NCBI GenBank assembly: GCA_963835925.1
Contig: CAWIHH010000004.1
Location: forward strand, 14,452-78,451
Direction: 5' to 3'
Source of the DNA: Candidatus Bathyarchaeota archaeon
GTDB taxonomy: Archaea > Thermoproteota > Bathyarchaeia > 40CM-2-53-6
Length of the DNA stretch: 64,000 nucleotides
Below the pieces are notes generated by a model that made no database searches, was not told the origin of the DNA, and was given only the letters and a program-made list of their open reading frames with translations. The position numbers were made by a program, and so were the translations under genes. Shown here piece by piece: positions 107-21,520 of the stretch (position 1 is its first letter; every line of letters starts with the position of its first letter).

Positions 107-1171
107 TTAAAGAATGTGGGGGAACATGCACGCAACACCGCGAGATGTTGAAGCCGGGTCCACCGACTTGGAGCTGCTATCAATCATGCCTTGGATCAGG
201 TGATTATAAAGGACGCCTCGGTGTCGACTCGCCACTGCTTGGTAAGTTTGGCCGGTGACTGTTTCAATTCGTTTGAGGCGGTCTTTTTTCCATAGGAAAT
301 CGTCGTTCCATTCAGATGAGAGATCTGTGATGGCGTATTGAGGGTGATATTTCACTTCAGCCCCGAGGTAGTTTATTCCGTCAGCACCGATCACTAGAAG
401 AAAGTGTGCTGCGTGGTATCCTGAGAAGTCCACGCTCTGTTCCACATACCGGTCCGGCAACGTGAAGACCTGAAATCCATCTGAAGATGATTCTTGGGTT
501 TCTCTAATTTTCGCCAGAACCTTGTATTGGTTCACACGGTCGGGAGCACCAACATCCCATCGGACACATAGGGGATGGAAATAAATCCAGTCCGCGGCTG
601 CTGCGGAAACTTCTTGTGCAACCGACGGAATTAAGTCCGCATTCTCCCTGCTTGTGAGCGCACTTATGCCGATCTGTAGCTTGCTGCCTTCGCTTTCAAC
701 TCGTGACTTTAGCCTTCTGATCTGGTTGAGGGTGGACTGAAATTCGACCCTTGATTCCTTAGTCCAATCGTATATGGAGACACGCACGGATGATGCGTAT
801 GCGCAGAGCGCGGCAGAAACCTGCTCATCATCCAGAAGACTTCCATTTGTCACGATTGCAATGTCAACGAATCCGTGCTCCCGAGCCATACGGAGAACCT
901 TTGGAAAATTAGGATCCATGGTGGGTTCTCCTCCTGAAAGGAGAAGGCCTCGCGTTTCACCTTCCAGGCGAGTAAACAAGCGCTCGATGAAACTCGGTTC
1001 AAGGCTATTTTGGTACTCGCTCGTCGTGCTTGGGCAATAGGGGCACCTCTTATTGCATTGTGACGTTATATCTAGTTCAATCGTAGCGGGTGTGATCTGT
1101 TCCTTCCGCAAATACGCCTCAAGTTTTTCCTTGTGAAACGCCACTTTGTACGCTGATGCTAATTCAGGCAT
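107..1171 (-). CDS. radical SAM enzyme
   Basis: 354-aa ORF. It has a CNKRCPYC (CX3CX2C) Fe-S/SAM motif near the N-terminus and a downstream LLSGGEPT glycine-rich motif. Confidence 0.8.
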   Translation of the reverse strand: MPELASAYKVAFHKEKLEAYLRKEQITPATIELDITSQCNKRCPYCPSTTSEYQNSLEPSFIERLFTRLEGETRGLLLSGGEPTMDPNFPKVLRMAREHGFVDIAIVTNGSLLDDEQVSAALCAYASSVRVSIYDWTKESRVEFQSTLNQIRRLKSRVESEGSKLQIGISALTSRENADLIPSVAQEVSAAAADWIYFHPLCVRWDVGAPDRVNQYKVLAKIRETQESSSDGFQVFTLPDRYVEQSVDFSGYHAAHFLLVIGADGINYLGAEVKYHPQYAITDLSSEWNDDFLWKKDRLKRIETVTGQTYQAVASRHRGVLYNHLIQGMIDSSSKSVDPASTSRGVACMFPHIL

Positions 1172-1413
1172 CTATCAACCTGCTCTCCTTCAACGAGCGA
1201 TCCTATTACCACCATGTTCTGGCTAACTATGAATCGGCATAGATGCAAATTTACCTGCAGATCTGCCGCCAGATTCACTCATCTCCAAACTGAGGAAGGC
1301 CAAGTGAGATTTATGTGTGAGATGGAACTCTCAAACTGGCAGTCACATAATTCCGACAGAAAGAACAGTTGCATGAGAAGTTACCCTCAGTCCGTTGATT
1401 TGGGAGTTCGAAG

Positions 1414-2523
1414 ATGAAATTGCTTCGAAACGTTTCCTCTCTGTTCAGTCAACTTCCACGGCAACCTTTCACGTTCTCCTCATGGAATGCCAACAAGCAC
1501 CGTATCCCACCTATCTTACGGGAAATCATCTGGTCTACAGCAATCTCGATCATGAAGTTGGACACTAGGCACACTCAATACCTCAGGGGAATTCTTGAAA
1601 ACAATATTATGACACTCACAATAGAACTAACGAACATTTGTAACGCAAACTGTTAGTTCTGTGCCTACAAACATCAGAAGAGAGAAAGAAAGATCATCTC
1701 TGACGACTTGTACAAGTATGCCCTTGATCAGTACGCAGAATCCGGGGGTGGAGTGTTAAATCTGACCCCTGTCGTTGGTGATCCTTTGCTCGACAAGAAC
1801 CTGGTCCCCAAAATCAAATATGCGAAGACCTTGCGCCAAATCGAATACGTCTTCTTCTACACAAACCTCATCGGATTGAGTAATTTCGATGTTACCAATC
1901 TTCTTTCGTCAGGGATCGATGAGATAGACGTCTCCGCATGTGTCGGCAGCAGGCAAATGTACCGCACGGTATACGGCGTTGATAGATATGATTCCGTTAT
2001 GCAGAACCTCCGAAGTCTCCTGAAGGAGAATTGGCGGCTGGGGGATCGAGTCAAGGTCAAAGTTCACGTCAGGGGCGACAAACCACATGAACGAATCAAG
2101 TTGAGTTCTGACTATCGTCGAATTTCCGAATTGTACGGCAAGGAAGTCATCCATGCTGATGAATGCTACGATAACTGGACAGGAATCATAAGAGAAGAAG
2201 ACCTACCGAAGAACAACGTATTTAGAGAAATCAAGAATCGGTCGGAACCGTGCTCGGAATTGTATAATGGCATGATTATCTTCGCAAACGGAAACGTGGG
2301 AATCTGCTGGCGTAGAGACGTTGAAGCAAAGCTGATTATTGGAAATATTCACGTGAGTAACTTGGAGGACATTTGGAAAGGAAGAGCACCTCACATGATT
2401 AGGGAGAATTGGCTGAAGGGGAACGTTCCCTCGACATGCAGCCGATGCTACTGCTACACGCCCCTATCGGAGTTCTTATTCACAAATGGACTGCGGAATA
2501 CTCCATATGGAACGCAAGCATGA
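1414..2523 (+). CDS. radical SAM / SPASM-like enzyme interrupted by one in-frame TAG (1654-1656) inside the CX3CX2C motif
   Basis: ORFs 1414-1656 and 1708-2523 share one frame. Read-through gives TNICNANC-[TAG]-FCAYK. The C-terminus has a Cys-rich SPASM-like region (CSELY..GICW..CSRCYCY). Confidence 0.7.
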
Positions 2524-2609
2524 GCAAAGTCAACAGCATCAACTGAAAGCCATGGTAAATGCGTGACCAGAAACGGCAATATCCTGGGCGATTGATACTA
2601 CAGGTTCGG

Positions 2610-3808
2610 TTAATGGTCGGTCAATTTCGTTGTTTCATTAAGAACATTCATGACCAGCTGAGCAACGATATTCCAATCATTTTGAACGGCCAACTTTCGT
2701 GTCTCAACTCCAAGTTTGAATTGCTCGTGACTGTTCCGCAATATGTGCTCACAACCTCGAAGCCAATCGTCATGCGAATTAGACTCAAGAAACAATGCTG
2801 CTCCTTCCGCATATTCTTCAAGTCCTAAGCCGCGAGAGACAAGAACCGGAAGTCCCGAGGCCATAGCTTCGAGCAGAGCGAGCGGTGCAGCTTCGGTTGT
2901 ACTGGGCAAGCAGAAGGCCGTCGCGCATTTGAAAAGAGATGAGATGTCTTCATGATTCAGGAGACCTGGAAAGCTCACTGATTGACCTAAGCCTAGCTGT
3001 CGAGACAACCGTTGCATACGCGAACGGTCCGGGCCGTCTCCGGCGAGAACAAGCTGAACATCAATCTTACGCCGAAGATCAGCAAATACTTCAAGAAGGA
3101 AGTCGAGATTTTTCTCCTGAACAAAACGACCCGCCCACACCAACAGACTTTTCTCACGTGCAGTTGGACTCGGGCTGAACATTTTACAATCGACACCTTG
3201 CGGCACCGCGAGATTCGAGACAGCGGAACTCCAAGTCCAATGAGCCGCTTCACTTCCATTCCTGATAATGCAATTACGCGATCAGCATTGCGGAGTATTC
3301 TCCTCGACACGCAAGTGATGTACGCCTCTTCAAGAAGATTAAGCACAGGTTGACGTTTCACTCTGACTCCATGGCTGACTACTATGAGAGGTATTGAACG
3401 TAGTTGCGATAGCCAATAAGCAATCACTGTTGTGAACATCAAGTGTGAATGTGCAACGACCACGTCAAATCGTTCGTTTGTTCTAAGGGAGTGCTGAAAC
3501 ATCGAGAGAGGTACTGGATTCTCTGCCAACCACAAGCGTGCAGGGAAGCGTCTTATCAAGCATCGCTTGGCAAGCTCTAAACTAGGGTATTCCCCCTCAA
3601 GAGAAGTCCAGACCTCAACTTGATGTTCTTTCGAATGTAATTCCGAAATTTTGTTGACGTAGACGGACAGCCCACCTTGGCAAGGTGGGAAATATCGGTG
3701 TGCGATATGTAATATTCTCATACAATTCATTCCGTGGTCATTAGCGGTGTTATTCACCGCAGCTGCATTATGCTGGACTGGTTCACAATCACTCTTGATG
3801 TTTTGCAC
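2610..3808 (-). CDS. GT4-family glycosyltransferase, one frameshift near 3200 (true start probably 3721)
   Basis: The N-part (MRILHIAHRYFPP..GG) and the C-part (EKNLDFLL..LPSTTEAAPLALLEAMASGLPV) lie in two overlapping frames. Confidence 0.7.
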
Positions 3809-5561
3809 TCAAAAGGTAATGGCCTTGGCTCTCCACACCGATTCACACAACCACTTTCGACAATTGTCGTCTGGTTCGGAAGTGGCGAGTAGAGAATTTC
3901 ATACCAAGAGAAGTTTGAACGTCCTCCTATCAGTTTGTTTGAGAAATGCAAAAGTAACCAATTTAGCACTTCAGGTCTTGGCAGGAACCAGGTGCCTCTC
4001 TGCTGATGCACAAGTACCACGGCAATGACATTTCTGTGTTCCAGCGAATCTTGAATAGAACTCACGTTCCTGTAGACATTCAAATCGATTAGGTCGGCAT
4101 TAGGCAGGTAGAACCTGATTTCCATCGCATTAGTCAAAATCGTGCCTCCTGTGAATCCTAAATCCGCTATGGCGTGTCCAGCGTCACGCACTCCGCTGTA
4201 CTCCTCAGTAATTACCGGCATTAAGCCAATGGAACCAACGAGTAAGAAGACAAATACTATTCCAATGGTGCGCTTACTGCTGGTATGTGGTAGCACGCTG
4301 CCTCCATTTACTCCTAACGCGGCAAGCGGTACTGATGAGATTAGCAGGTAGCGAATGTCCCTTACTTTGAAAATCATCAAGACTATGGGCACAAGTAACC
4401 ATAACATCAACCAGATTCCCCCGCTTTCTTTATTCCTCAGTGATAGGTACACAGCGGTTAAGGCGAGGAGAATGAGGGGTAGAGTCCACCATCCAGGTAA
4501 TTGGGAAACAAGGTCAAAGTAGCTGATCCAGGACAAGGTCCCCCCCAGCTCGACGCCTCTCAAAATGACGCTGGTAGTCAAGCCAAGAGAATAAGCAAAG
4601 GAAACCGGGGATAACATCGCCCATAATCCGTACGCTACTGCTCCGATGAAGCTGACAAAACTCCCCCATACTAGTCTTCGAGATCTCGTCAGTCTAGGAT
4701 AGAAAAATGCTGCAAGAAAGATCATAACCATCCAAAGAAAAGGTATAACTCCCTTACTCCAGAAAGCCAAACCAAGTACGACACCTGAAATTACAAGCGC
4801 CTTCTTTGAGTCATATCGAACCGAGTGCAGAAACATTGTCAAAGCCAGAAGCCCAAAAAAGAACGCGTAGCGTCTGTCAATGCCAAGGACTGAAAGGCAA
4901 CCCCTTGCGGAAGCATGGCAAAGAAAGAAGTTGCATAGAGAGCAGTGATGCGGTTCTGAATTGTCAACACAAACCAATATACAATGGGTATAGACGCTAG
5001 AGCAAACACAACCGAAACGATACGCGCCCCTTCCAGTGACCCAAGGACTTCATACCCGAGTGACATCAACATAATCCCTAACGGCGGGTGAACCGCCTGA
5101 AGTCCAGCTATGCGATCATAATTCTGCAGGAAATTCGCGAGGTTAGTCCACGGGTGAGTGCTCAAGATCGCCCAAATCTGATATTCATCAGGATAGTAGC
5201 TTGCTGAGAAAGCGACAACAAACCTCAACGCAGCAGAAATCAACATTAGCACGATTATGAAATAAGAGGATCTCTCAAACAGCCAATTCAACAAAGGAGG
5301 TTTGAGATCGTACCTAGAGGCAACTATGAGGGCGAATAAAGCAAGAATCGGTAGGGAAATGAGAAAGACTGGTACCTGGAAACCCAATTCTCCAACGATA
5401 AGAAAAAAAACTAGCGAGGCGATCGCACCCGCCAAGGCTATGATTATCCAAGCTGCATCTTCCAACGTCTTGAAGAAGCTCATCACCGAATCTAAGCACG
5501 GGTTCTTTCTCTGATTCAAGAACGTATCGCAACTGATTCCGATTGAAAAGGAAGGTGTCAA
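3754..5561 (-). CDS. GT-C fold membrane glycosyltransferase (PMT/ArnT-like), one frameshift near 4900
   Basis: Polytopic membrane protein split over two overlapping frames. It has a YYPDEY loop motif and VHPPLG early in the protein, typical of GT39/GT83-type enzymes. Confidence 0.55.
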
Positions 5562-5760
5562 CGAGGTCTTGTCATTACGAGCACCCTACATTAACTACTG
5601 CCTAACTCCTAATTCTTGAATGGATAATGCGCATCACTAGAACCGCATACACAAGAACGCCGGTAAAACATCGATCCGTTCAAGCGAATCCAGTTGACTC
5701 GATCAACACCTCCAGCAGTGAATGTGGAACGCGACATCGCAAGGGTGCCTTCTCTCGCAC

Positions 5761-6489
5761 TTAGTCGAACTGGAAGGAAAGAAAGTGCCAATCACTGTTT
5801 GTTGTTCCTTCGACAACCAGCGTACCTGTAAAGCCAGGGGCAGGTGCGAAGGGCAGTACGGACCAGCTTGAAGTATTCTCGGCAGGTTCGTCAGAGTTAT
5901 CCAGAAGATCAGTTCCGCTGGATAGTTGGAAACGTTCAGCGAAACCAGTTCCAATTGCTTTGACAAGGGCCTCTTGTCTAGTCCAACTATCAAAGAACAC
6001 CATTCTCCTCTCATTTCTAGTTACAGCCCTGGCAGCTTCGCGCTCGGAAAGGCACGTATCCACAATCTGTTCAACGCCCGGCAATTCTCGAACAAACTCA
6101 ACGTCAATGCCTAAGCGGCGCCCGCGAGTGAATGCGTACAGAACAAGCTCATGTGAATGAGCTAAGCTAAATTGAAACGCATCTCTGCCGTATCCCTGCT
6201 CCACATATGGTTTACCATGGGCCCCGTAGTAGAATTCGATCAGATTCGGTTCAGCGTTCAGGTAGAATCCGAGGATCGTTCGAAGTACCCCTCTCCCTAC
6301 AATGAATTGCCTTCTAGCGTTGTTAGAACGAAAGCGCGCCGCCCTTCTGCGGTCTTCCACGGATAGTCTTGAGGCCAACTCATGATCAGAGAGAGTGTGT
6401 CTTTCAAGATTCAGGCGCCAAACATGGACATCTTTGCTTGACAATTCTGCCGGGAGGCTAGGCGTAGCCCAGGAGTTCGCGAATTTCAC
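5761..6489 (-). CDS. Sfp-type 4'-phosphopantetheinyl transferase
   Basis: 242 aa with GKPY, LGIDVE and FFDSWTRQEALVKAIG (WxxKEAxxK-like) motifs. Its start overlaps the stop of the upstream carrier-protein gene by 4 nt. Confidence 0.85.
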   Translation of the reverse strand: MKFANSWATPSLPAELSSKDVHVWRLNLERHTLSDHELASRLSVEDRRRAARFRSNNARRQFIVGRGVLRTILGFYLNAEPNLIEFYYGAHGKPYVEQGYGRDAFQFSLAHSHELVLYAFTRGRRLGIDVEFVRELPGVEQIVDTCLSEREAARAVTRNERRMVFFDSWTRQEALVKAIGTGFAERFQLSSGTDLLDNSDEPAENTSSWSVLPFAPAPGFTGTLVVEGTTNSDWHFLSFQFD

Positions 6490-9149
6490 GACTGACTCCT
6501 TCTGTCTGGCGACAATTGTACGTTGTTCACGGCATTATCAACGTAAGTTCTTACAAGTTCGCCCAGAACCTGTACGTATGGTTCTTTCAGTATGCTCAAA
6601 TGTTCGCCTGGCACCACGTGGGCTTCAAACGGGCCAATAGCCAGTCGCCTCCAAGCATCTATCCTACGCTGAGGTTCAGGACTAAAAGGCGCTCTCTTTT
6701 CGGGCAAAAATAAAGCGGTTCGTCCTGGATATGGCTTTGGAACGTATCTATCTACTGCTTTCTGCGTTTCAACCCAGACCCGAAACCGGCGAACGAAGAT
6801 CTTGCCCAGCTGCCGAGAATAATGACCAAATATCGACTTTGCAAGTGTTATTGCTTCTTCCCTGTGCTTCAGATAGAAGGATACTTTATGTAGATACTGT
6901 TCAAGGTCTTCTAAACAGCCGCGATGTTCAATAGTGGTGCTAGGCTCAAATGGTCTGGGCAGTCTAGTGTCAAGCAGAATAAGCGCTGCAACATCTGAAC
7001 TTTGTGTACGCAGTTGTTGGGCCATTTCTAGCGCTACGATTCCTCCGATTCCTGCTCCACCTAAAACGTAGGGACCGTGCGGTTGCACGGCTCGAATTTC
7101 TTTCATGTAGTGGGCGGCCATCTCCTCAACCCGCGTAATTGCGGCAGTATTTTTGTCAAGGCCTTGCGCTCTCACCGCGTAAAATGGCTGGTCTGGACCA
7201 AGTCGACGGGCAATGTCTGTGAGGAATAGAACCTCACCTTCACATGCATGCACGAAATAAAGAGGTACTTTGGCACCCGTGGGTTGGATGGCGGTTAGCG
7301 ATGCTGGAGGCATGAAGAATTTTTTCACACCCAGCATACTAGCCATTTCCTCAATCGTAGGCGCGTGAAGAAAAATCACTAATGTTATGTCTCTTCTTTG
7401 CAGCGCTTCGCATAACTTGGAAAGGATTACTCTCGCTTGAATTGAGTCACCTCCTAGCTCAAAGAAGTTGTCGTTAACGCCGATTTTCTCCACGCCCAAG
7501 ACCTGCGACCATATTCTTGCTATTTTTACTTCTAGCGGAGTGCTTGGAGCCTTGTATGCTGCTTCAGCTTCTAGAATCGGTGCATCGCTAGATTGTCCTA
7601 AGCCTAAACGTGCAGCAAGGCCTATCCGCTGCATTTTGCCGGTTGGCCCTTTAGGTATCTCTTTCAGGAAAACGATCCTGCGCGGAATTTTGTAATCTGC
7701 CAAACGGCTAGCAACGAATCGTTGAATTTCCCACTCTGTGGCACTCGTACCCTCACGCAAAACAATCGCAGCGGCAACATCTTCACCGAATTTGGGATCC
7801 GGCACTCCGAAGGCAATTGCTTGCGCAACGCATGGATGGCCCAAAAGGACTTCATCTATTTCACGTGGTGAGATCTTTTCGCCGCCGCGGTTGATTATCT
7901 CCTTGAGACGCCCCGTGAGCGTGAGGAAGCCCTCTTGATCAAGATAACCTTGGTCTCCTGTCCTAAACCACCCCTTGACGAATGCTGTGGCGTTTGCGTC
8001 TGGATTGTTGTCATAGCCTCGCATGACGGTCGGACCACGGATCACTACTTCGCCAATTTCGTCCTGCGGCAACAGATTTCCATCAGCATCCATGATTCCA
8101 ATTTCCGGACCAGCAGGTAAGCCTACTGACCCCGCCTTTCGCATGTTTGGTGGCAGTGGGTTGCTGGCCATCTGATGCGAGGCTTCAGTCATTCCGTATG
8201 ATTCGATCACGGGAACATTGAAGGTCTTTTCCAAATCAGTCATAACCTGCGGCGGCAAGGGGGAAGATGAAGATCGAATAAATCGCAGCTTGGAGTGGCC
8301 AATAACGTCGAGATTGTTCTTGGACCGCGCCAATATCGCTTGGTGCATAGTGGGCACTGCAGTGTACCATGTCGGATTACACTCCTTCATCCAATCGTAG
8401 AATCTCGGAGCATAGAAGCCAGGCGTGCAGAAAATAGATGCACCCGCAGATATCGTTGAAAGCAATGCGCCGATGAGGCCGTGTATGTGGAAAAGGGGCA
8501 TAACGTTTAGACAGCAATCCGCCGGAGTCAACTTGAGAACTGTTCGAATATTGCGGGCTGAATTGCATATGTTCTCGTGCGTCAGCGGAACCATCTTGGG
8601 CCGTGATGTCGTACCAGAGGTATGTAGGACCAAAGCAACATCGTTGGGCTCGGCGAAGCCTCCAGCGGAAATGTGATTCTCACCCTCGCTACTTAGAGTG
8701 AAGACGCCCGCACTTTCCTCCAACACAGGCGAAAGGCGTACAACGGGAATCCCTCTTTCCCTCGCAATACTAATTGCTGGCAAGTCCATTCCGGACTGAA
8801 TTATGAACGCTCGCGGCTTCAAATCGGAGAGGAGAAAATCGAACTCCTCAGCTTGCAAGTACGGATTAATAGGCGCGCTCCCTGCGACGGAAGCTACTGC
8901 TAAGAATGCAACTGCGGCCTCGGGGCCATTTGGCACTACCATGGCAACACGATCGTTTCTGCCGACGCCCATCGCATTCAGTGATTCGACAGTAAGGTCG
9001 ATTTGTTTGCTCAATCCCTCGTAAGTCAAAGACGACCGTCCCGGAGCAGCGATTGCAAATGCATGTGGAGTCTTCTTTGCGCAGTTTGACACGAATTCGC
9101 TAACGGTTAAAACAGGCGAAGAAAGGTCACGTCTAGTGTTGTCATCCAT
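6486..9149 (-). CDS. NRPS-like adenylation / carrier protein / thioesterase-like tridomain protein
   Basis: 887 aa. LHTSGTTSRPK is the AMP-binding core. GWFRTGD and GRLKEIINRGGEKI are later adenylation motifs. FFELGGDSIQA is the phosphopantetheine attachment site. The C-terminus is an alpha/beta-hydrolase region with GPYVLGGAGIGG and GEH. Confidence 0.85.
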   Translation of the reverse strand: MDDNTRRDLSSPVLTVSEFVSNCAKKTPHAFAIAAPGRSSLTYEGLSKQIDLTVESLNAMGVGRNDRVAMVVPNGPEAAVAFLAVASVAGSAPINPYLQAEEFDFLLSDLKPRAFIIQSGMDLPAISIARERGIPVVRLSPVLEESAGVFTLSSEGENHISAGGFAEPNDVALVLHTSGTTSRPKMVPLTHENICNSARNIRTVLKLTPADCCLNVMPLFHIHGLIGALLSTISAGASIFCTPGFYAPRFYDWMKECNPTWYTAVPTMHQAILARSKNNLDVIGHSKLRFIRSSSSPLPPQVMTDLEKTFNVPVIESYGMTEASHQMASNPLPPNMRKAGSVGLPAGPEIGIMDADGNLLPQDEIGEVVIRGPTVMRGYDNNPDANATAFVKGWFRTGDQGYLDQEGFLTLTGRLKEIINRGGEKISPREIDEVLLGHPCVAQAIAFGVPDPKFGEDVAAAIVLREGTSATEWEIQRFVASRLADYKIPRRIVFLKEIPKGPTGKMQRIGLAARLGLGQSSDAPILEAEAAYKAPSTPLEVKIARIWSQVLGVEKIGVNDNFFELGGDSIQARVILSKLCEALQRRDITLVIFLHAPTIEEMASMLGVKKFFMPPASLTAIQPTGAKVPLYFVHACEGEVLFLTDIARRLGPDQPFYAVRAQGLDKNTAAITRVEEMAAHYMKEIRAVQPHGPYVLGGAGIGGIVALEMAQQLRTQSSDVAALILLDTRLPRPFEPSTTIEHRGCLEDLEQYLHKVSFYLKHREEAITLAKSIFGHYSRQLGKIFVRRFRVWVETQKAVDRYVPKPYPGRTALFLPEKRAPFSPEPQRRIDAWRRLAIGPFEAHVVPGEHLSILKEPYVQVLGELVRTYVDNAVNNVQLSPDRRSQS

Positions 9150-9349
9150 CTCGGTTCATCTATGTCTGCTCATCATCCGCCTGAACGGAATGCTCAGCTT
9201 CTCAATTCTTCTCTTATTAGGCAGAGGCCCTCGTCTGCACGCGTGTGGGCATTCTGGTGCGCCAAGAGGATAAGCCTTTCACTCAGTTGGAGAGGGCGTA
9301 TTACCTGCCGCGAGTACGGTAAAACTACTAACGAGTTAATTTCTAAGGC

Positions 9350-10402
9350 GTGTGTGAGGCCTACGAGATGAAAGTGAAGCAGCTAGTTGCGAGCGCTGCC
9401 AACTACACAGGCACGTTGGCTGCTTACGCATTCCTTCGAAGGAAGATCACAAACTCACAAGTGGCTATCCTATTGTACCATCGAATCAGTCCTGCAGAAG
9501 ACACGTATCATCGTCCGCTTGATCCTGTGAGCTTTCGTGAACAAATCAAGTATATTGCCGACAATTTCAAGATACTCGGTCTGGAACAGCTAGCCGGTAT
9601 GATCCGATCGGGCCGATCGCTCCCTGAAAAAGCCGCGGTCATTACCATCGACGACGGATATAGAGACAGTTACGACTATGCCTATCCAATCCTTCAAGAA
9701 TATGAAGTACCCGCAACGGTGTTCGTTGTTACAGGTAACCTAGACAACAGGGAGCTATTCTGGTGGGACAGAGTAGAGTACATACTCAAACACACTACAA
9801 AACGCTAACTGAACTTGGAAGAGCTTGGCAGTTATCAACTCGAACGTGAAGATAACAGGTTCAGTGCGATAGTCAATGCTATTGGAAAACTGAAGAGAAT
9901 TCCTGATGACGAGAAGAACCTGATGGTCGCCAAGCTTTCAGGAATCTGTGACGTGAAGATCCCGCGTCAAGATGTGGAGAAAGGTCTCCTTTCTTGGGAG
10001 AACGTCAGAGAGATGAGCAAAGGCGGCATAGTTTTTGGAGCTCACTCGGTGAACCATCCGATTCTAACTAACGTGTCCCTTGAGCTCGCTAGGGACGAAA
10101 TAGTTGAGTCAAAGAGAAGTCTCGAGAAGAAACTGGGCAAAAGTGTGACATCTTTTTCCTATCCCGATGGCCACTTCAATGTCGACATTGCAAAGCTGGT
10201 CGCTGGAAACGGCTTTACCTGTGCTGTCTCTGTGGGTCCAGGCAAATTGGTCAATGTCACCGATAACGTATATGGACTTGGAAGAATCTGCCCCGGTGAG
10301 GATTATAGCAAATTCAAAGCGCTGATCTCCGGGTTGGCTGGGGACGCGGAAAGAGCTTGGAGTGCATGCAGACGGGATCATCTGTCGATTGATAGCGAAT
10401 GA
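9350..10402 (+). CDS. polysaccharide deacetylase (CE4) interrupted by an in-frame TAA (9806-9808)
   Basis: ORFs 9350-9808 and 9815-10402 share one frame. Motifs are ITIDDGYRDSY (Asp-Asp metal/catalytic motif) and GAHSVNHP. The likely ATG is at 9368. Confidence 0.75.
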
Positions 10403-10470
10403 AACCTATCATCGAGCGCTGGCGGTAAGTGGCTTCATGTCCTGTCGCCCAGAGAGACGAAAGGGTGGTC

Positions 10471-11691
10471 TCACCCGGTACTATCACCGCAGTTTGGCCT
10501 ACTTGCAACCTCTCTGAATTCGCCGCATGCGATTGCAGCAACTTTCGGGGCAATGACACGCCAATCGAAATTTCGCATTACAAATTCCCGGGCGTTGAAC
10601 CCGATTCTTCGTGCGTACTTCTGGTCGCCGTGCAAATCGCGAATTATGTCCATCCAGACTCGGGGCCGACTGTTATCGACACAAAATCCGGTCTTCCCGT
10701 GCCGTATCATTTCCGGCACACCTCCAACCTTGCTTGCAACAACTGGTCTGCCAACAAGTGAAGCTTCTAGGATCGTGGTTGGACAGCAGTCAAGACCAGA
10801 CACCAGAGCGTACACATCGCATGCTGAGAGGAATCGTCTCACTTGATCCGGGTAGGCTAGATACGGTATAAATGTTACATTCTTGACACCTCGTAGCGCC
10901 ATTGCTACCTTGTTGAAATAGGGTGCCAGGCCTCGGATACTAGGTTCTCCTGCAACAACATAGAACGTGACGTCGGGCATCTGCTGTATCACGTTCCGGA
11001 ACTCAATGAGGGCTTTCACCTTTGGCCAAATGTTGTATGTCTGCATGATCCCGACATTCGGATGTTTGAGTTGCAAGCCTTTTTCCTCATAAAACAGCGA
11101 AGGATCGACGCCTTGGTAGACAACGTCAGTCCTAACGTTCCCTATTTCGGAGTGGACTCTCTCCTCAAGCCAACGGCACACAGGAATTATCAGATTAGCT
11201 GAACTCATTTCCTTATTGAGTAGGCGCCTGTAGAAGTCTGTAATCAGGTACGCTGAGAGGGCAGAAGGACTTCTCTTTGACAGGGAAGCTCGTCTCTCCC
11301 TTCTGAGAAAGGTAACCTCAGTCCAGATATCGCCCCACAAACGAATTGCATAGGCGCAACGGAGTCTAAAGAGACGCCGCATCAGCGCCAGATGCTTCGA
11401 TTGATTGAGAGGTAGATCCGTCAGCAGAAGATCTGGTCTGAACTTCACGGCGTTTCGATAGAGATCTACTGGTAACACTACGTCGGTGACTAAACTGGTC
11501 CCGCTCGTCCAAACGGGAATGATCTCGGTGTCAAAGTTGGAGGGCAGATTCCGTACAAGCATTTGCCAGAAATAGCGCGAAAAGCCCGCAGTGACAATCA
11601 GGATTCTCAAGGAGTAACCTCGATGGGACAGCTGTTTCTCAGAATCGCACAGCCACCCGGACAATGGTAGGGCGTACCATTTCTCTCGCAT
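10471..11691 (-). CDS. GT4-family glycosyltransferase
   Basis: 406 aa. The C-terminal domain reads CPTTILEASLVGRPVVASKVGGVPEMIRHGKTGF, typical of Glycos_transf_1. Confidence 0.75.
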   Translation of the reverse strand: MREKWYALPLSGWLCDSEKQLSHRGYSLRILIVTAGFSRYFWQMLVRNLPSNFDTEIIPVWTSGTSLVTDVVLPVDLYRNAVKFRPDLLLTDLPLNQSKHLALMRRLFRLRCAYAIRLWGDIWTEVTFLRRERRASLSKRSPSALSAYLITDFYRRLLNKEMSSANLIIPVCRWLEERVHSEIGNVRTDVVYQGVDPSLFYEEKGLQLKHPNVGIMQTYNIWPKVKALIEFRNVIQQMPDVTFYVVAGEPSIRGLAPYFNKVAMALRGVKNVTFIPYLAYPDQVRRFLSACDVYALVSGLDCCPTTILEASLVGRPVVASKVGGVPEMIRHGKTGFCVDNSRPRVWMDIIRDLHGDQKYARRIGFNAREFVMRNFDWRVIAPKVAAIACGEFREVASRPNCGDSTG

Positions 11692-11971: not shown

Positions 11972-12610
11972 ATGAAGGAAACCACAGAGAAAACAAGTGG
12001 AACCGTTGAATCAGCTCAGAAGAAGACTGTGAGCGGACCGGTTGAACCGCACATTAAGGAAGCAACAATCACAGGAATCATCCACAAACCCACAGGAGAC
12101 GCCCTTGGCGGAGCCTCAGTCGAGCTCGTAATTAAGAAGGTCTTTTCCAGTAGCGACGGAAACTATACGCTGAAGGTCCCTGTACCAGAAGACGGCAAAG
12201 TGACCTTAGCTATCTCCTGCATTGGTTACCAGAGCGAAACAAAAGAAGTGAAGGTCACCCCTGATGAGAGTCTGAGCTTGGATTTCACCCTAGGAAAGGG
12301 GAAGGCGTCCATCGAAGGCGACGTGTACGACAAAGACACACGAGCGAAACTCGGGGGAGCCTACGTGAGTATCGAATCACAGAGAATATACCGCGGACGA
12401 GAACGGCCACTTCGCGTTTAAGGGTTTAGACGCCGTAAAACGCTACCCGTTCACATGCTACAAAGACGGATACAAAACGGAAATATTTCTATCCGACTGG
12501 ATTCAACCAGATCAAACCCTCAAACAAGACATCTACCTGACCAAGGCGGATCCAGTCAAGGAAGCTTCCGAAGCAGCAAGTCAAGAGACGCAAGAATCGA
12601 AACAGTCCTA
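11972..12610 (+). CDS. carboxypeptidase-regulatory-like (beta-sandwich) repeat protein, frameshift near 12375
   Basis: Two G.V.D..T..PL.GA.V / DG.Y.L / GY-type repeats. The second continues in the +1 frame (EYTADENGHFAFKGL..YKDGYKTE) to a stop at 12608-12610. Confidence 0.5.
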
Positions 12611-14244: not shown

Positions 14245-15456
14245 GTGAACAATTACTTCCAGGAATTGTCAAATGTGGTTACTATGGCGACTCCATTAGC
14301 GAGTATTGTCTCTGGCGGGATAACCAAGTTTGGGGCCCGCGAGGGCGTTTACACACGAGAACTCTTCGCTGAAGCTGTGAAAGAGGCGTTTAGCAATTGC
14401 CCCAATCTAGATCCGAGACGGGATATTCAAGGGCTCTTTGTTGGGATGATGAGCGAATCCTATGAACACCAGGCGCACGTCGCCCCTCTACTCCTCGACT
14501 GGATCGGCCTACTACCAATCCCCGCGGTTCGAACAGAAGGCGCATGCGCATCCTCGTCGGTGGCATTGAGGAACGCTATCTGTGCAATTCGCTCTGGCCT
14601 ATACGATGTTGTACTAGTGGGAGGAGTGGAGAAGATGACTCACTTCAGCACCACAGGCGTTACCGAGGTTTTGGCCATGGCCTCAGATTTCCCATTCGAA
14701 CAGTGGCATGGGATTTCCTTTCCAGGCATATTCGGAATGATGGCCGTTGACCATATGCACCGCTACGGGACCACCGAGGAGCAGATGGCCAAAGTCGCGG
14801 TCAAGAATCATGAGCATGGCCTGTTGAACCCGAAAGCACACTTCCAGAAGCGAATAACCGTGAACGATGTTCTCTCATCCAGCCGTGTAGCGTGGCCGCT
14901 GAAACTCTACGACTGCTGCCCACGCAGCGACGGTGCCAGCTGCCTGATCCTCACATCGCCAAAAATCGCGAAGAAGTTCACGGACACACCGGTGAACATT
15001 GTGGGGTCAGGTCAAGCCCAGGACACCCTAGGCCTCTTTGAACGTGAAACCTTCAGCAGCATGAAAGTTACCCGGTTGGCCTCCCAGCAGGCTTACAAGA
15101 TGGCTGGCCTCGGACCCAGCGATATTGACGTCGCTGAACTGCACGATTGCTTCACAATAGCCGAGATCATGGCCTACGAGGATCTGGGTTTCTGTGAAAC
15201 GGGCAAAGGCGGCAAGCTGATCGAAGACGGTGCGACCCAGCTAGGCGGGAAAATTCCAACGAACACAAGCGGCGGCCTCAAAGCCAAAGGACACCCTGTG
15301 GGCGCCACAGGTACAGCCCAGGCCCACGAGATCTACCTCCAACTCACCAACCAAGCGGGAAAGAGACAGGTCTCCGGAGCAAAGATCGGTCTCACCGAGA
15401 ACGTCGGCGGATCAGCCTCAACCGGAGTCGTTCACATCTACCAACGCGGAGATTGA
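14245..15456 (+). CDS. thiolase (acetyl-CoA acetyltransferase-like, archaeal type)
   Basis: Thiolase fold with the nucleophile context VRTEGACASSSVAL and the C-terminal GGLKAKGHPVGATG. The likely start is the ATG at 14284. Confidence 0.85.
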   Translation: MNNYFQELSNVVTMATPLASIVSGGITKFGAREGVYTRELFAEAVKEAFSNCPNLDPRRDIQGLFVGMMSESYEHQAHVAPLLLDWIGLLPIPAVRTEGACASSSVALRNAICAIRSGLYDVVLVGGVEKMTHFSTTGVTEVLAMASDFPFEQWHGISFPGIFGMMAVDHMHRYGTTEEQMAKVAVKNHEHGLLNPKAHFQKRITVNDVLSSSRVAWPLKLYDCCPRSDGASCLILTSPKIAKKFTDTPVNIVGSGQAQDTLGLFERETFSSMKVTRLASQQAYKMAGLGPSDIDVAELHDCFTIAEIMAYEDLGFCETGKGGKLIEDGATQLGGKIPTNTSGGLKAKGHPVGATGTAQAHEIYLQLTNQAGKRQVSGAKIGLTENVGGSASTGVVHIYQRGD

Positions 15457-19860: not shown

Positions 19861-21520
19861 TCATTCATGACCCTTCCTGATCATGTAGAGTATTCTTTTC
19901 GCATATCTCAGTCCGGGTCTCAGAAAGGTTGCGACTATTCGTGTTCTGCATAGGATGGTTTCTAGATTGGCGATATCGGACTCGCTGATGGCTCGCATGA
20001 TTGGTGCTACGGTTAGGTAGGTCACCAAATAGAGCCCTCCGCCCAGAATGAGATTGACCACACCATGCTCGGTCAGATGGAGCTGGAGTATGGCTATCGG
20101 AAACAGGGCCGAAACCATGGCCGCGATTAGTATCCTTGCGCTAGCTCCGAGATCAAGTCGCACATCGATTCTCCATGAAGCCATACGTAACCCAAACAGC
20201 GTTGAAGTCATGGTTGAAAGAAAGAAGGCTACTAGAAGGCCGTAAGGTCCCCAAAGCCATGTGAATACCCAACCCGACGGCAAGGAGAGACCGAGGGTCA
20301 GGATGCCTATGAGCAGGAGCGTTTTGGTTTCCGCCACTCCGCTGAGAAAACTTCCAAGAATCAAGTATCCAAGCCCAGTCAGGAAGTACACAGCGGAGAG
20401 CAAAATCAAGTACTGGGGAGCAAGCGCAAAAGCCCTTCCATAGGTGAGGTAAACAAGGTCCCGAAAAAACAGCAACCGCCACGGATGCAGGAAACATAAC
20501 CAGCGATGCGTACTTCACCGCCAACTTGAACGCCCTCGACAGGTTGACCCTATCGTTCACGAGCTCCATCTTGGAAAACATTGGAAAAATGGCTGTTGTG
20601 ATTGGATAGATGAGAATCATTAGAAAACTGTTGAAATTCCAAGCGGCGCTGAAATTCCCGATCTCCACGTTAGTTGCGAAATGAGTGAGAACAATGTTCT
20701 GATATTGCGTGAGGAAGACTGTGATGAGGGCAGCCAAATACAGAGGCAAGCCATAGCCGAGCAAGATGCCTAATTTCACTGGCTGGCTCTCACCCTCCTG
20801 CCTCCCAGAACGAGCATGCCTCGTGAAGAGAAGGATCGCCCCGCTCACACCTGCAATAAGGGCGCCCAGCACGTATCCAACAATCGCGCCCTCGAGTCCG
20901 AAGCCCAACAGTATGAGCGCAGGTATAAGCGCACTTTTGAAAATTGAAAACGTGATCTGAATGGCCACGCTGTACTGCATTAGATCTAATCCGATGAAAG
21001 CGTTGGTCGCCGCATCGGAAATGGATTGGAATATTATCAAGAATGCTGCCAGCCTCAAGAGAGGAGCTAATTCAGGCCTGTTCAACACAATCGCTGAAAT
21101 CGGCCCCGCACCCAAGTAGCACACCGAGAACCAGACGATGCTAACGGAGAGTTTGAGCAGAAAACCCCGCCTGATCGTTCTGCTCACCGCGAGTTGGTCA
21201 CCTTGTGACTTGAACCTCGCCGACATTCTAACGAGAGCGTAGTTCATGCCCAGGTCGGAAACATAGGCCAGGAGGACGGGGGTAAGCAGAGTCAGTATGT
21301 ATAGTCCGTAGCCTGAAGGCCCGAGCAACCGTGCGATTATGATGGCACCGACGGCCAAGATCACCGTTGAGACAGTGTTCCCAACAAAGAGGAAAAAGCC
21401 TCCGCGAGCGGCCGTCCCAGCTATCCTAGTCAAGTTCTCTGAAGACATAGCCCTCGCCTCATTCATGATACACACGTCAACATTGCTCTGTTTTGAAGGA
21501 TCGTGCACACTCAACCGCAC
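19861..21520 (-). CDS. polysaccharide/oligosaccharide flippase (MOP/Wzx family), frameshift near 20460
   Basis: Protein with 12 or more TM segments beginning MSSENLTRIAGTAARGGFFLFVGN (likely start 21448). The last approx. 190 aa are in the overlapping ORF 19861-20475. Confidence 0.7.

Follow-up and report, generated by a model that had tools for sequence, protein, structure and literature searches.

The oxalyl-coenzyme A (CoA) synthetases (OCS) of Lathyrus (LsOCS) and Arabidopsis (AtAAE3) hold oxalate in a pocket made up of Val215-His216, Cys288-Ser289, Ala313-Met314, His319 and Lys500, in which the substrate is contacted by Ser289, His319 and Lys500, the first two of these being particular to oxalyl-CoA synthetases (PMC8905533). 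In Methylobacterium extorquens, the oxalyl-CoA reductase of oxalate assimilation is an enzyme of the PanE family (PMC9485241). Carrier proteins and the enzymes that prime them are missing from most archaea, and the few that are present came from bacteria (PMC3533463). Here we present the analysis of a two-gene unit in a 64,000-nucleotide stretch of DNA, hereafter the window, from a Candidatus Bathyarchaeota archaeon (assembly GCA_963835925.1, contig CAWIHH010000004.1, positions 14,452 to 78,451), in which the gene for an adenylation/carrier/thioesterase (A-T-TE) protein overlaps that for a 4'-phosphopantetheinyl transferase (PPTase) of the Sfp type. The original prediction, made from the sequence without database searches, had described the pair as a carrier-protein-dependent modification cluster within an archaeal glycosylation locus. 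Our preferred reading, to which we assign a probability of roughly 0.45, is that the two genes would suffice by themselves to transfer a carrier-tethered oxalyl group to a glycan precursor. It builds on domain identities, a conserved gene pair, conserved pocket residues and rewired thioesterase motifs, all of which were observed directly.

The pair and its functional sites, in window coordinates, are as follows.

6486-9149, minus strand: single-module A-T-TE gene resembling a nonribosomal peptide synthetase (NRPS), 887 amino acids, assigned from Pfam, PDB sequence matches and AlphaFold fold matches
7635-9083, minus strand: adenylation domain, with AMP-binding at residues 23-379 and AMP-binding_C at residues 430-505
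8265-8267 (Ser295), 8175-8177 (His325) and 7635-7637 (Lys505), minus strand: predicted oxalate-contact residues, their roles taken from the AtAAE3/LsOCS structure paper (PMC8905533)
7332-7526, minus strand: carrier (PP-binding) domain, with the predicted phosphopantetheine attachment residue Ser569 in the motif GGDS at 7443-7445
6561-7265, minus strand: thioesterase-like alpha/beta-hydrolase domain, assigned from an alignment with solved thioesterases, covariation counts and the model
7050-7052 (Gly700), 7242-7244 (Cys636), 6969-6971 (Asp727) and 6600-6602 (His850), minus strand: residues of interest in this release domain
6486-6489, minus strand: start/stop overlap GTGA of the A-T-TE and PPTase genes, from direct reading of the sequence
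5761-6489, minus strand: Sfp-type PPTase, 242 amino acids, GTG start, assigned from Pfam ACPS and AASDHPPT_N

Pfam profiles placed AMP-binding (239 bits), AMP-binding_C, PP-binding (residues 542-606, 45.8 bits) and Thioesterase (residues 629-863, 86.5 bits) along the 887-residue protein, the last match covering profile positions 2-220 of 226. Both lobes of the PPTase, AASDHPPT_N and ACPS, scored over their cut-offs (28.0 and 43.0 bits), as in the two-lobed Sfp type. The original assignments of both proteins were borne out by these profile hidden Markov models, with the GGDS carrier and the PPTase each scoring, and the coupling proposed at 6486-6489 could be read directly as GTGA: in the junction tcGTGAaa, the PPTase start GTG (6489-6487) and the A-T-TE stop TGA (6488-6486) share four nucleotides. 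The same 4-nucleotide overlap was found in the related loci L001, L003, L011 and L093 (loci are given here under our own handles). An AlphaFold model of the A-T-TE protein, with a mean predicted local distance difference test (pLDDT) score of 81.4, matched oxalyl-CoA synthetases first, followed by the terminal NRPS modules AB3403, EntF, SrfA-C and ObiF1. Each component of the pair is of a known kind, that is, an ANL ligase, a carrier of the peptidyl carrier protein (PCP) type, a type I thioesterase fold and an Sfp-type PPTase. What is new is the combination: an oxalate-type loader joined to both carrier and release domains, a PPTase as obligate partner in an archaeal host, and a release domain with a glycine elbow and a loop cysteine.

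The adenylation domain carries the core motifs of the ANL superfamily, namely the P-loop TSGTTSRPK at residue 177, YGMTE at residues 318-322 and the lysine of motif A10, Lys505, all of them invariant among its homologues. Its best solved relatives in a PDB sequence search were Lathyrus OCS (6qjz, E = 3e-131), Arabidopsis AAE3 (5ie0, E = 1e-129) and yeast Pcs60 (8aff), with 44-45% identity to plant AAE3/OCS; 6qjz was also the top fold match of the AlphaFold model, with a target-normalised TM-score of 0.89, a root-mean-square deviation of 2.5 Å and 44% identity. Sequence and fold matches agree in placing the adenylation core in the acyl/oxalyl-CoA-ligase branch and not with amino-acid-activating NRPS domains, as had been proposed originally. 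Alignment with the plant enzymes identified the pocket equivalents in the A-T-TE protein as Ile222-His223, Ser294-Ser295, Gly319-Met320, His325 and Lys505, and the three contact residues were almost universally kept among A-T-TE homologues (Ser295 in 113/113, His325 in 110/113 and Lys505 in 113/113). An adenylation-domain tree and a substrate-pocket comparison, both suggested with the original prediction, recovered an archaeal clade and found the oxalate contacts kept.

When one genome per species was scanned, many free-standing ligases with about 60% identity to the adenylation domain came up, in bacteria only among the matches listed, and these share its pocket (I222, H223, S/C294, S295, G319, M320 and H325). 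A gene for a PanE/ApbA-family reductase adjoins the ligase gene in 51/53 of these bacterial loci (L033-L091), with TctABC-type transporter and FAH-family genes often nearby, again among the matches listed. The pairing of ligase and PanE neighbour is the synthetase/oxalyl-CoA-reductase arrangement of M. extorquens, which sets the bacterial ligases in an oxalate-assimilation context. The ligase and PanE/ApbA loci L033-L091 are also of interest in their own right, as an apparently widespread module for conversion of oxalate to glyoxylate. Judging by its sequence, the A-T-TE adenylation domain is a derivative of the oxalyl-CoA synthetases and not itself a CoA ligase, being fused to PP-binding and Thioesterase domains. 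We infer with strong confidence that its substrate is oxalate, which is the best-supported candidate because the closest relatives are oxalyl-CoA synthetases, the contact residues are kept and the pocket is shared with PanE-paired ligases. There is a good chance, in our judgement, that the A-T-TE protein tethers oxalate, or a close analogue of it, on its own PPTase-primed carrier.

The carrier motif itself is well preserved, with G566, G567 and S569 of GGDS invariant across 64 homologues. In the PPTase, the motifs GIDVE and W-T-R-Q-E-A-L-V-K were recognised by eye; relative to G-x-D and W/F-x-x-K-E-A/S-x-x-K, which we take to be the signatures of Sfp-type enzymes, Gln replaces the first Lys of the second motif. 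The best NCBIfam match of the PPTase was HetI (NF042922), at 164 bits against a cut-off of 370, which marks the protein as a relative of HetI and not an orthologue. PPTase identity tracks that of the partner A-T-TE protein at the level of sequence, the respective values relative to the window's proteins being 83% vs 88% in L001, 46% vs 59% in L003 and 45% vs 62% in L002. Beyond these loci, the nearest named PPTases are bacterial, at about 40% identity. The pair is probably of bacterial origin, which fits the scarcity of carrier systems in archaea; the premise that phosphopantetheine systems are uncommon in this domain agrees with the literature (PMC3533463). The same scarcity would explain why the archaeal A-T-TE copies carry a PPTase of their own.

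Full-length A-T-TE proteins turned up in protein searches in more than 120 clusters, at 47-88% identity, with named members in Bathyarchaeota, Poribacteria, Anaerolineae and a Thiosymbion gammaproteobacterium; a protein from Kamptonema (Cyanobacteria) has a condensation domain added to the A-T-TE domains. Further hosts, among the matches listed in the genome scan, belong to Acidobacteriota, Chloroflexota, Gaiellaceae and Desulfobacterales. The adenylation-domain tree places the window's domain in a 33-member clade (local support 99), in which the single-cell genome SCGC AB-539-E09 of the Bathyarchaeota is also represented. Ten distinct loci of this archaeal clade were counted: the window (with L011, from the same strain), L001, L002, L003/L004, L005/L006, L007, L010, L092 and L093. 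A PPTase gene adjoins the A-T-TE gene in 10/10 of them, that of L010 lying two small genes away on the opposite strand, as compared with a PPTase within 10 kb in only 3/12 bacterial A-T-TE loci, plus the Anaerolineae locus L008. It had been allowed at the outset that the gene set might prove to be a common, already characterised archaeal operon. The pair is indeed fairly common in environmental Bathyarchaeia, but a full-text literature search turned up no published description of the A-T-TE/PPTase family, and the objection fails.

Three side observations concern the wider family. The adenylation-carrier unit opens multi-kilobase NRPS and polyketide synthase (PKS) genes in L017, L020, L022, L025, L027, L031 and L051, the hosts being Gemmatimonadota, Calothrix, Blastocatellia, Binatia, Bryobacterales and Acidobacteriota. 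A block comprising a GH38 mannosidase, a URO-D-like gene, the A-T-TE gene and the PPTase gene is common to L008:5585-13728, on an Anaerolineae chromosome, and L010:7920-20466, which looks archaeal (TrmB, AFOR), and this common neighbourhood suggests transfer of a gene block between domains. Finally, in L009:6988-12694, an exopolysaccharide locus with asparagine synthase, sulfotransferase and Bac_transf genes, a 1012-residue protein with PP-binding and Thioesterase domains is encoded directly upstream of, and overlapping, the A-T-TE gene.

The most unusual features were found in the release domain. In the alignment, the elbow residue Gly700, in G-A-G-I-G, takes the place of the catalytic Ser in 7crn and NocB and of the Cys in 4zxh (AB3403), so that the elbow has neither the Ser nor the Cys of the canonical GxSxG motif; the Asp and His of the triad remain, as Asp727 and His850. 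Of 113 family members, 44 have Ser at the elbow, 26 have Cys and 38 have Gly, with the Ser and Cys versions belonging to the more distant homologues, and both Asp and His are kept in 36/38 of the members with Gly. A cysteine after the first core strand (H634-A-C636-E-G-E in the window) is found in 36/38 Gly-elbow members and in 4/4 members with Arg or Ala at the elbow, and is missing from the one with Glu. Taken together, the loop Cys occurs in 40/43 members that have no elbow Ser or Cys, as against 2/70 that have one (uncorrected Fisher test, 1.6e-24). In an independent sample, consisting of 50%-identity representatives from an exhaustive search of 1.8 billion representatives with the release domain only, the loop Cys was found in 13/24 domains without an elbow Ser or Cys and in 0/155 with one, across many architectures. 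On the adenylation-domain tree, the combination of Gly and Cys is found at three or more further positions besides the main archaeal clade.

In the AlphaFold model, Cys636 lies two residues past the strand at 630-633, the usual oxyanion-hole position, and Gly700 forms the turn between the strand at 694-699 and the helix at 702-715. Asp727 comes directly after the strand at 720-726 and His850 directly after that at 841-849, so that the four residues occupy the canonical positions of oxyanion loop, elbow, acid and base. On these patterns the release domain reads as rewired and not simply broken. From the covariation and its placement in the model, we read Cys636 as a probable relocated thiol nucleophile; His850 may instead activate the acceptor directly. 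We infer a role for Cys636 with moderate confidence; that this residue is itself catalytic is a more tentative proposal, for which we would put the odds somewhat short of even. No precedent for a relocated thioesterase nucleophile turned up in the full-text literature search.

The genes on either side of the pair, in window coordinates, are as follows.

107-1171, minus strand: radical SAM enzyme (Pfam Radical_SAM, 56 bits)
1414-2523, plus strand: radical SAM/SPASM enzyme, with an in-frame TAG at 1654-1656 (Pfam)
2610-3808, minus strand: GT4 glycosyltransferase, with a frame break near 3200 that separates an N-terminal half at 2993-3808 (Pfam) from a C-terminal half at 2610-3206
3754-5591, minus strand: GT-C-type membrane glycosyltransferase (PMT_2/ArnT-like) with YYPDEY and HPPL motifs and a frame break near 4880-4900
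9350-10402, plus strand, divergent from the A-T-TE gene: CE4 polysaccharide deacetylase, with an in-frame TAA at 9806-9808 (Pfam on both halves)
10471-11691, minus strand: intact GT4-type glycosyltransferase (Glycos_transf_1, Pfam), with an orthologue beside the pair in L001 and L011

The radical SAM, SPASM, GT4, GT-C and CE4 genes named in the original prediction were confirmed by Pfam, and four of them proved to be interrupted. For the GT-C gene, the PMT_2 profile reached 30.9 bits (cut-off 26.1) over 3754-5591 only once its two frames were joined; the C-terminal half of the GT4 gene at 2610-3808 matches the GT4 genes of L003 and L007. The A-T-TE, PPTase, GT-C and GT4 genes run head to tail on one strand, with the CE4 gene divergent. 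The glycosylation setting recurs in relatives: 8/10 archaeal-clade loci are glycan loci (the window, L001, L002, L003, L005, L007, L092 and L093), containing GT4 and GT2 glycosyltransferases, nucleotide-sugar enzymes, Wzx-type flippases, a pyruvyl transferase and rhamnose genes. A gene of the deacetylase superfamily adjoins the pair as CE4 in the window and L001, as Polysacc_deac_1 in L003 (33.3 bits) and as DUF2334 in L092 (63.8 bits), three families with no detectable mutual homology. The two radical SAM enzymes, which had been counted as part of the cluster, are better regarded as neighbours: no radical SAM gene lies near the pair in the nine other distinct archaeal-clade loci, and a standing as conserved partners can be ruled out.

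Further along, the glycan region is interrupted by a thiolase gene (14245-15456) followed by an OB-fold/zinc-ribbon gene (ChsH2-type, DUF35-like; region to 15927), an order that presumably marks the start of an archaeal acetoacetyl-CoA thiolase/3-hydroxy-3-methylglutaryl-CoA (HMG-CoA) synthase complex, and it resumes with a flippase gene at 20153-21520. Genes with CarboxypepD_reg domains, probably for surface proteins, are found near the pair in two loci (window 11972-12421 and L093:16223-18790). The thiolase also bears on the identity of the host, which had been placed in the Nitrososphaeria; its nearest named relatives are from archaeon RBG_16_50_20 (85%) and Candidatus Bathyarchaeia (83%), and the host, an uncultured archaeon from soil, belongs to the Bathyarchaeia.

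The four interruptions called for an explanation. In the SPASM gene, the TAG falls between the second and third Cys of the CX3CX2C motif (C-N-A-N-C-TAG-F-C), beyond which the frame continues without a stop for another 289 codons; the likeliest explanation is an error or else a mutation of very recent date. The CE4 gene aligns without gaps, at 88% DNA identity, to an intact 343-residue gene in L001 that has AAA (Lys) at the position of the TAA. The frame breaks of the GT4 and GT-C genes sit in TCTCGCGG and ACGCGTTCTTTTTT contexts, the GT4 context being CGCG. The window is part of a contig of 1,355,405 bases, which suggests a long-read assembly. A Logan contig, L011, that is 99.8% identical to the window differs from it at 12 positions, mostly 2-bp indels or G/A differences in CGCG- or GCGC-like contexts; in L011 the A-T-TE gene, intact in the window, is broken, so that the two assemblies break different genes. 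The side-by-side comparison of window 2610-11583 with L011:1-5845 shows CGCG- or GCGC-like sequence around most breaks and differences, which take the form of 2-bp CG indels or G/A changes; this looks like systematic long-read error at a possibly methylated CG-rich motif. Because the CE4 gene is gap-free relative to its intact L001 counterpart, the L011 differences follow this pattern and the breaks lie in CG-rich contexts, most of the four interruptions are probably long-read sequencing errors. For the same reasons, and given the long-read contig, genuine decay of the cluster is unlikely. General recoding of TAG, for example as pyrrolysine, was rejected: TAG ends 12/43 open frames of at least 200 amino acids, reading it as sense mostly adds a few codons, and the CE4 stop is TAA. 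Reads of the window's strain were not found among the sequencing runs sampled, the best of which share only 4-6% of the sampled words.

These findings can be assembled into the following model. The adenylation domain would activate oxalate, or a nearly identical C2 diacid, with ATP and attach it, in thioester linkage, to the phosphopantetheine arm borne by Ser569 of its own carrier, and not to CoA. The arm would be installed by the PPTase from the overlapping gene, a dedicated copy being needed because archaea normally have no enzyme for priming carrier proteins. The thioesterase-like domain would then release the oxalyl group, with Cys636 as relocated nucleophile or His850 activating the acceptor. 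Most likely, the group would pass to an amino or hydroxyl function on a sugar intermediate that the glycan genes nearby produce. The best candidate would be an amino sugar that the adjacent CE4 deacetylase has freed and that the co-directional GT-C enzyme could then place on a surface acceptor. By analogy with known pathways, N-oxalylation of a deacetylated amino sugar may be the most economical model. We put an even chance on the target belonging to a glycan pathway, and the case for a glycan acceptor, drawn from gene context, is weak to moderate. The full scheme, in which Bathyarchaeia would attach oxalyl groups to a surface glycan or a lipid-linked sugar through a release domain that uses Cys636, His850 and Asp727 together, is unlikely to be right in every part.

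Several observations weigh against the model. Three residues that line the pocket are unlike those of AtAAE3 (V215I, C288S and A313G), so that a slightly different small acid is possible. Gene context is the sole basis for the glycan acceptor, and deacetylase genes are adjacent to the pair in only 4/10 loci; in L008 and L010, the pair is found with a GH38 mannosidase, a URO-D-like gene and major facilitator superfamily (MFS) transporters, and with no glycan synthesis genes. We know of no N- or O-oxalylated glycan, and none came up in the literature search. The case for Cys636 draws on covariation and secondary-structure position, and a phylogenetically corrected test of the Gly/Cys association was not significant, there being only 3 well-supported independent pairs. 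Lastly, with four neighbouring genes interrupted in the assembly, the function of this particular locus is not assured.

The same observations bear on the rival explanations. The loading chemistry might be as proposed and the product a small soluble oxalyl amide or ester, exported for metal binding or signalling, with the glycan genes as mere neighbours. The L008 and L010 loci, where MFS transporters, an esterase and GH38 and URO-D-like genes take the place of glycosyltransferases, point in this direction, as do the bacterial NRPS/PKS genes for small molecules that begin with the adenylation-carrier unit (L017, L020, L022, L025, L027, L031 and L051) and the variation between loci of all neighbours other than the PPTase. 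However, the preponderance of glycan loci in the archaeal clade (8/10), in which no condensation domain or second substrate-activating enzyme accompanies the pair, and the tight, co-directional packing of the window pair with GT-C and GT4 genes make a soluble product improbable, though it deserves to be kept in mind. The acid, for its part, might have drifted to glyoxylate, glycolate, oxamate or malonate. The V215I, C288S and A313G differences from plant AAE3 would allow this, and fusion to a carrier lifts the constraint imposed by CoA-based oxalate catabolism; yet the residues in direct contact with the substrate are invariant or nearly so, and the very same three variants occur in the PanE-paired bacterial ligases in their oxalate-assimilation context, so that we attach only a small probability to a change of substrate.

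Release of the group is open to two other interpretations. Alpha/beta-hydrolase folds with Gly at the nucleophile position are known as non-enzymes, the neuroligins among them, and with Gly at the elbow in 38/113 family members the thioesterase-like domain could likewise be a catalytically dead scaffold or docking module, another enzyme (a radical SAM enzyme such as the two encoded near the window pair, or an unlinked transferase) handling the oxalyl-carrier. A decaying site would not be expected to keep Asp and His in 36/38 Gly-elbow members, nor the loop Cys in 36/38; the other nine distinct loci of the archaeal clade lack radical SAM genes, and no other transferase is conserved beside the pair. 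We consider a dead domain rather unlikely. The original prediction had suggested acylation in the manner of Dlt, in which the carrier hands its acyl group to a membrane acyltransferase that decorates a polymer outside the cell, and a carrier-dependent activating enzyme within an envelope-glycan locus would suit such a scheme. The prediction did not hold on this point. No separate carrier protein or membrane acyltransferase (MBOAT DltB/DltD, AlmG) was found with Pfam and NCBIfam in the ten open reading frames of 107-11691 that carry the features described here or in the Pfam lists of nine related loci, and neither a NodA-like gene nor any other acyltransferase is present in the cluster or recurs in relatives; moreover, the carrier is no separate DltC but is fused to a cytoplasmic multidomain enzyme with a release domain of its own. 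A Dlt-like route is accordingly very improbable. Oxalyl transfer to a glycan precursor by the pair itself is the reading that we retain.

Carrier-protein chemistry is almost unknown in archaea, and the Bathyarchaeia are abundant, uncultured organisms of sediment and soil with an uncharacterised envelope; a conserved two-gene unit with its own priming enzyme offers a testable entry point into such chemistry. If oxalate is the substrate, an abundant soil acid would be linked to cell-surface chemistry, and loaders derived from oxalyl-CoA synthetases would extend from bacterial peptide assembly lines to archaea. An oxalyl-decorated glycan, if confirmed, would be a modification so far undescribed in any organism. 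The variant with a Gly elbow and a loop Cys bears on annotation, since such domains are now scored as ordinary or as dead thioesterases, and it may represent a new working mode for the thioesterase fold. If the nucleophile has indeed moved from elbow to oxyanion loop, this would be a previously unrecognised catalytic layout that recurs at several places in the adenylation-domain tree.

Comparison with known systems places the pair at the meeting point of several of them. With the oxalyl-CoA synthetases (AAE3, LsOCS, Pcs60 and the bacterial ligases paired with PanE) it shares the ANL fold, the core motifs and the contact Ser, His and Lys; those enzymes form a CoA thioester, whereas the acceptor thiol of the A-T-TE protein would be that of its fused carrier. 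Unlike in oxalate catabolism, no oxalyl-CoA decarboxylase, formyl-CoA transferase or PanE reductase gene lies near the pair, which is set instead in a glycan locus.

Pathways that deacetylate a sugar and then reacylate it are represented by NodB/NodA/NodF in Nod factor synthesis and by LpxC/LpxD, and the ArnD/ArnT aminoarabinose pathway processes a lipid-linked amino sugar with one enzyme of the CE4 type and one of the GT-C type. The window resembles these in having a CE4-type deacylase beside carrier-dependent acyl delivery, with a GT-C (ArnT/PMT_2-like) gene in the same array. What sets it apart is the lack of a NodA or LpxD-type acyltransferase, a predicted acyl group that is oxalyl, and steps that are all proposed from gene context. 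As in the Dlt (DltABCD) and AlmEFG systems, an ATP-dependent adenylating enzyme would load a phosphopantetheinyl carrier, for envelope modification as proposed here; unlike them, the window system has a fused carrier and no MBOAT or DltD, is predicted to use a diacid and not D-Ala or Gly, and has its own release domain.

With the stand-alone A-T-TE enzymes and terminal NRPS modules that the model matched (AB3403, 4zxh; EntF, 5ja1; SrfA-C, 2vsq; ObiF1, 6n8e), the window protein shares its domain order, the GGDS motif and a type I thioesterase fold. It differs from them in having an adenylation domain of the acyl-CoA-ligase branch, no condensation domain, a Gly elbow with a loop Cys, and an archaeal host. 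A thiol, in place of a hydroxyl, has been proposed as the acyl-accepting residue in the type I thioesterases ObiF, SulM and MacB-TE of NRPSs (PMC6668435, PMC11298585, PMC13288461). In those enzymes the Cys stands at the canonical elbow, whereas the window enzyme has Gly at the elbow and its candidate Cys one structural element away, in the oxyanion loop.

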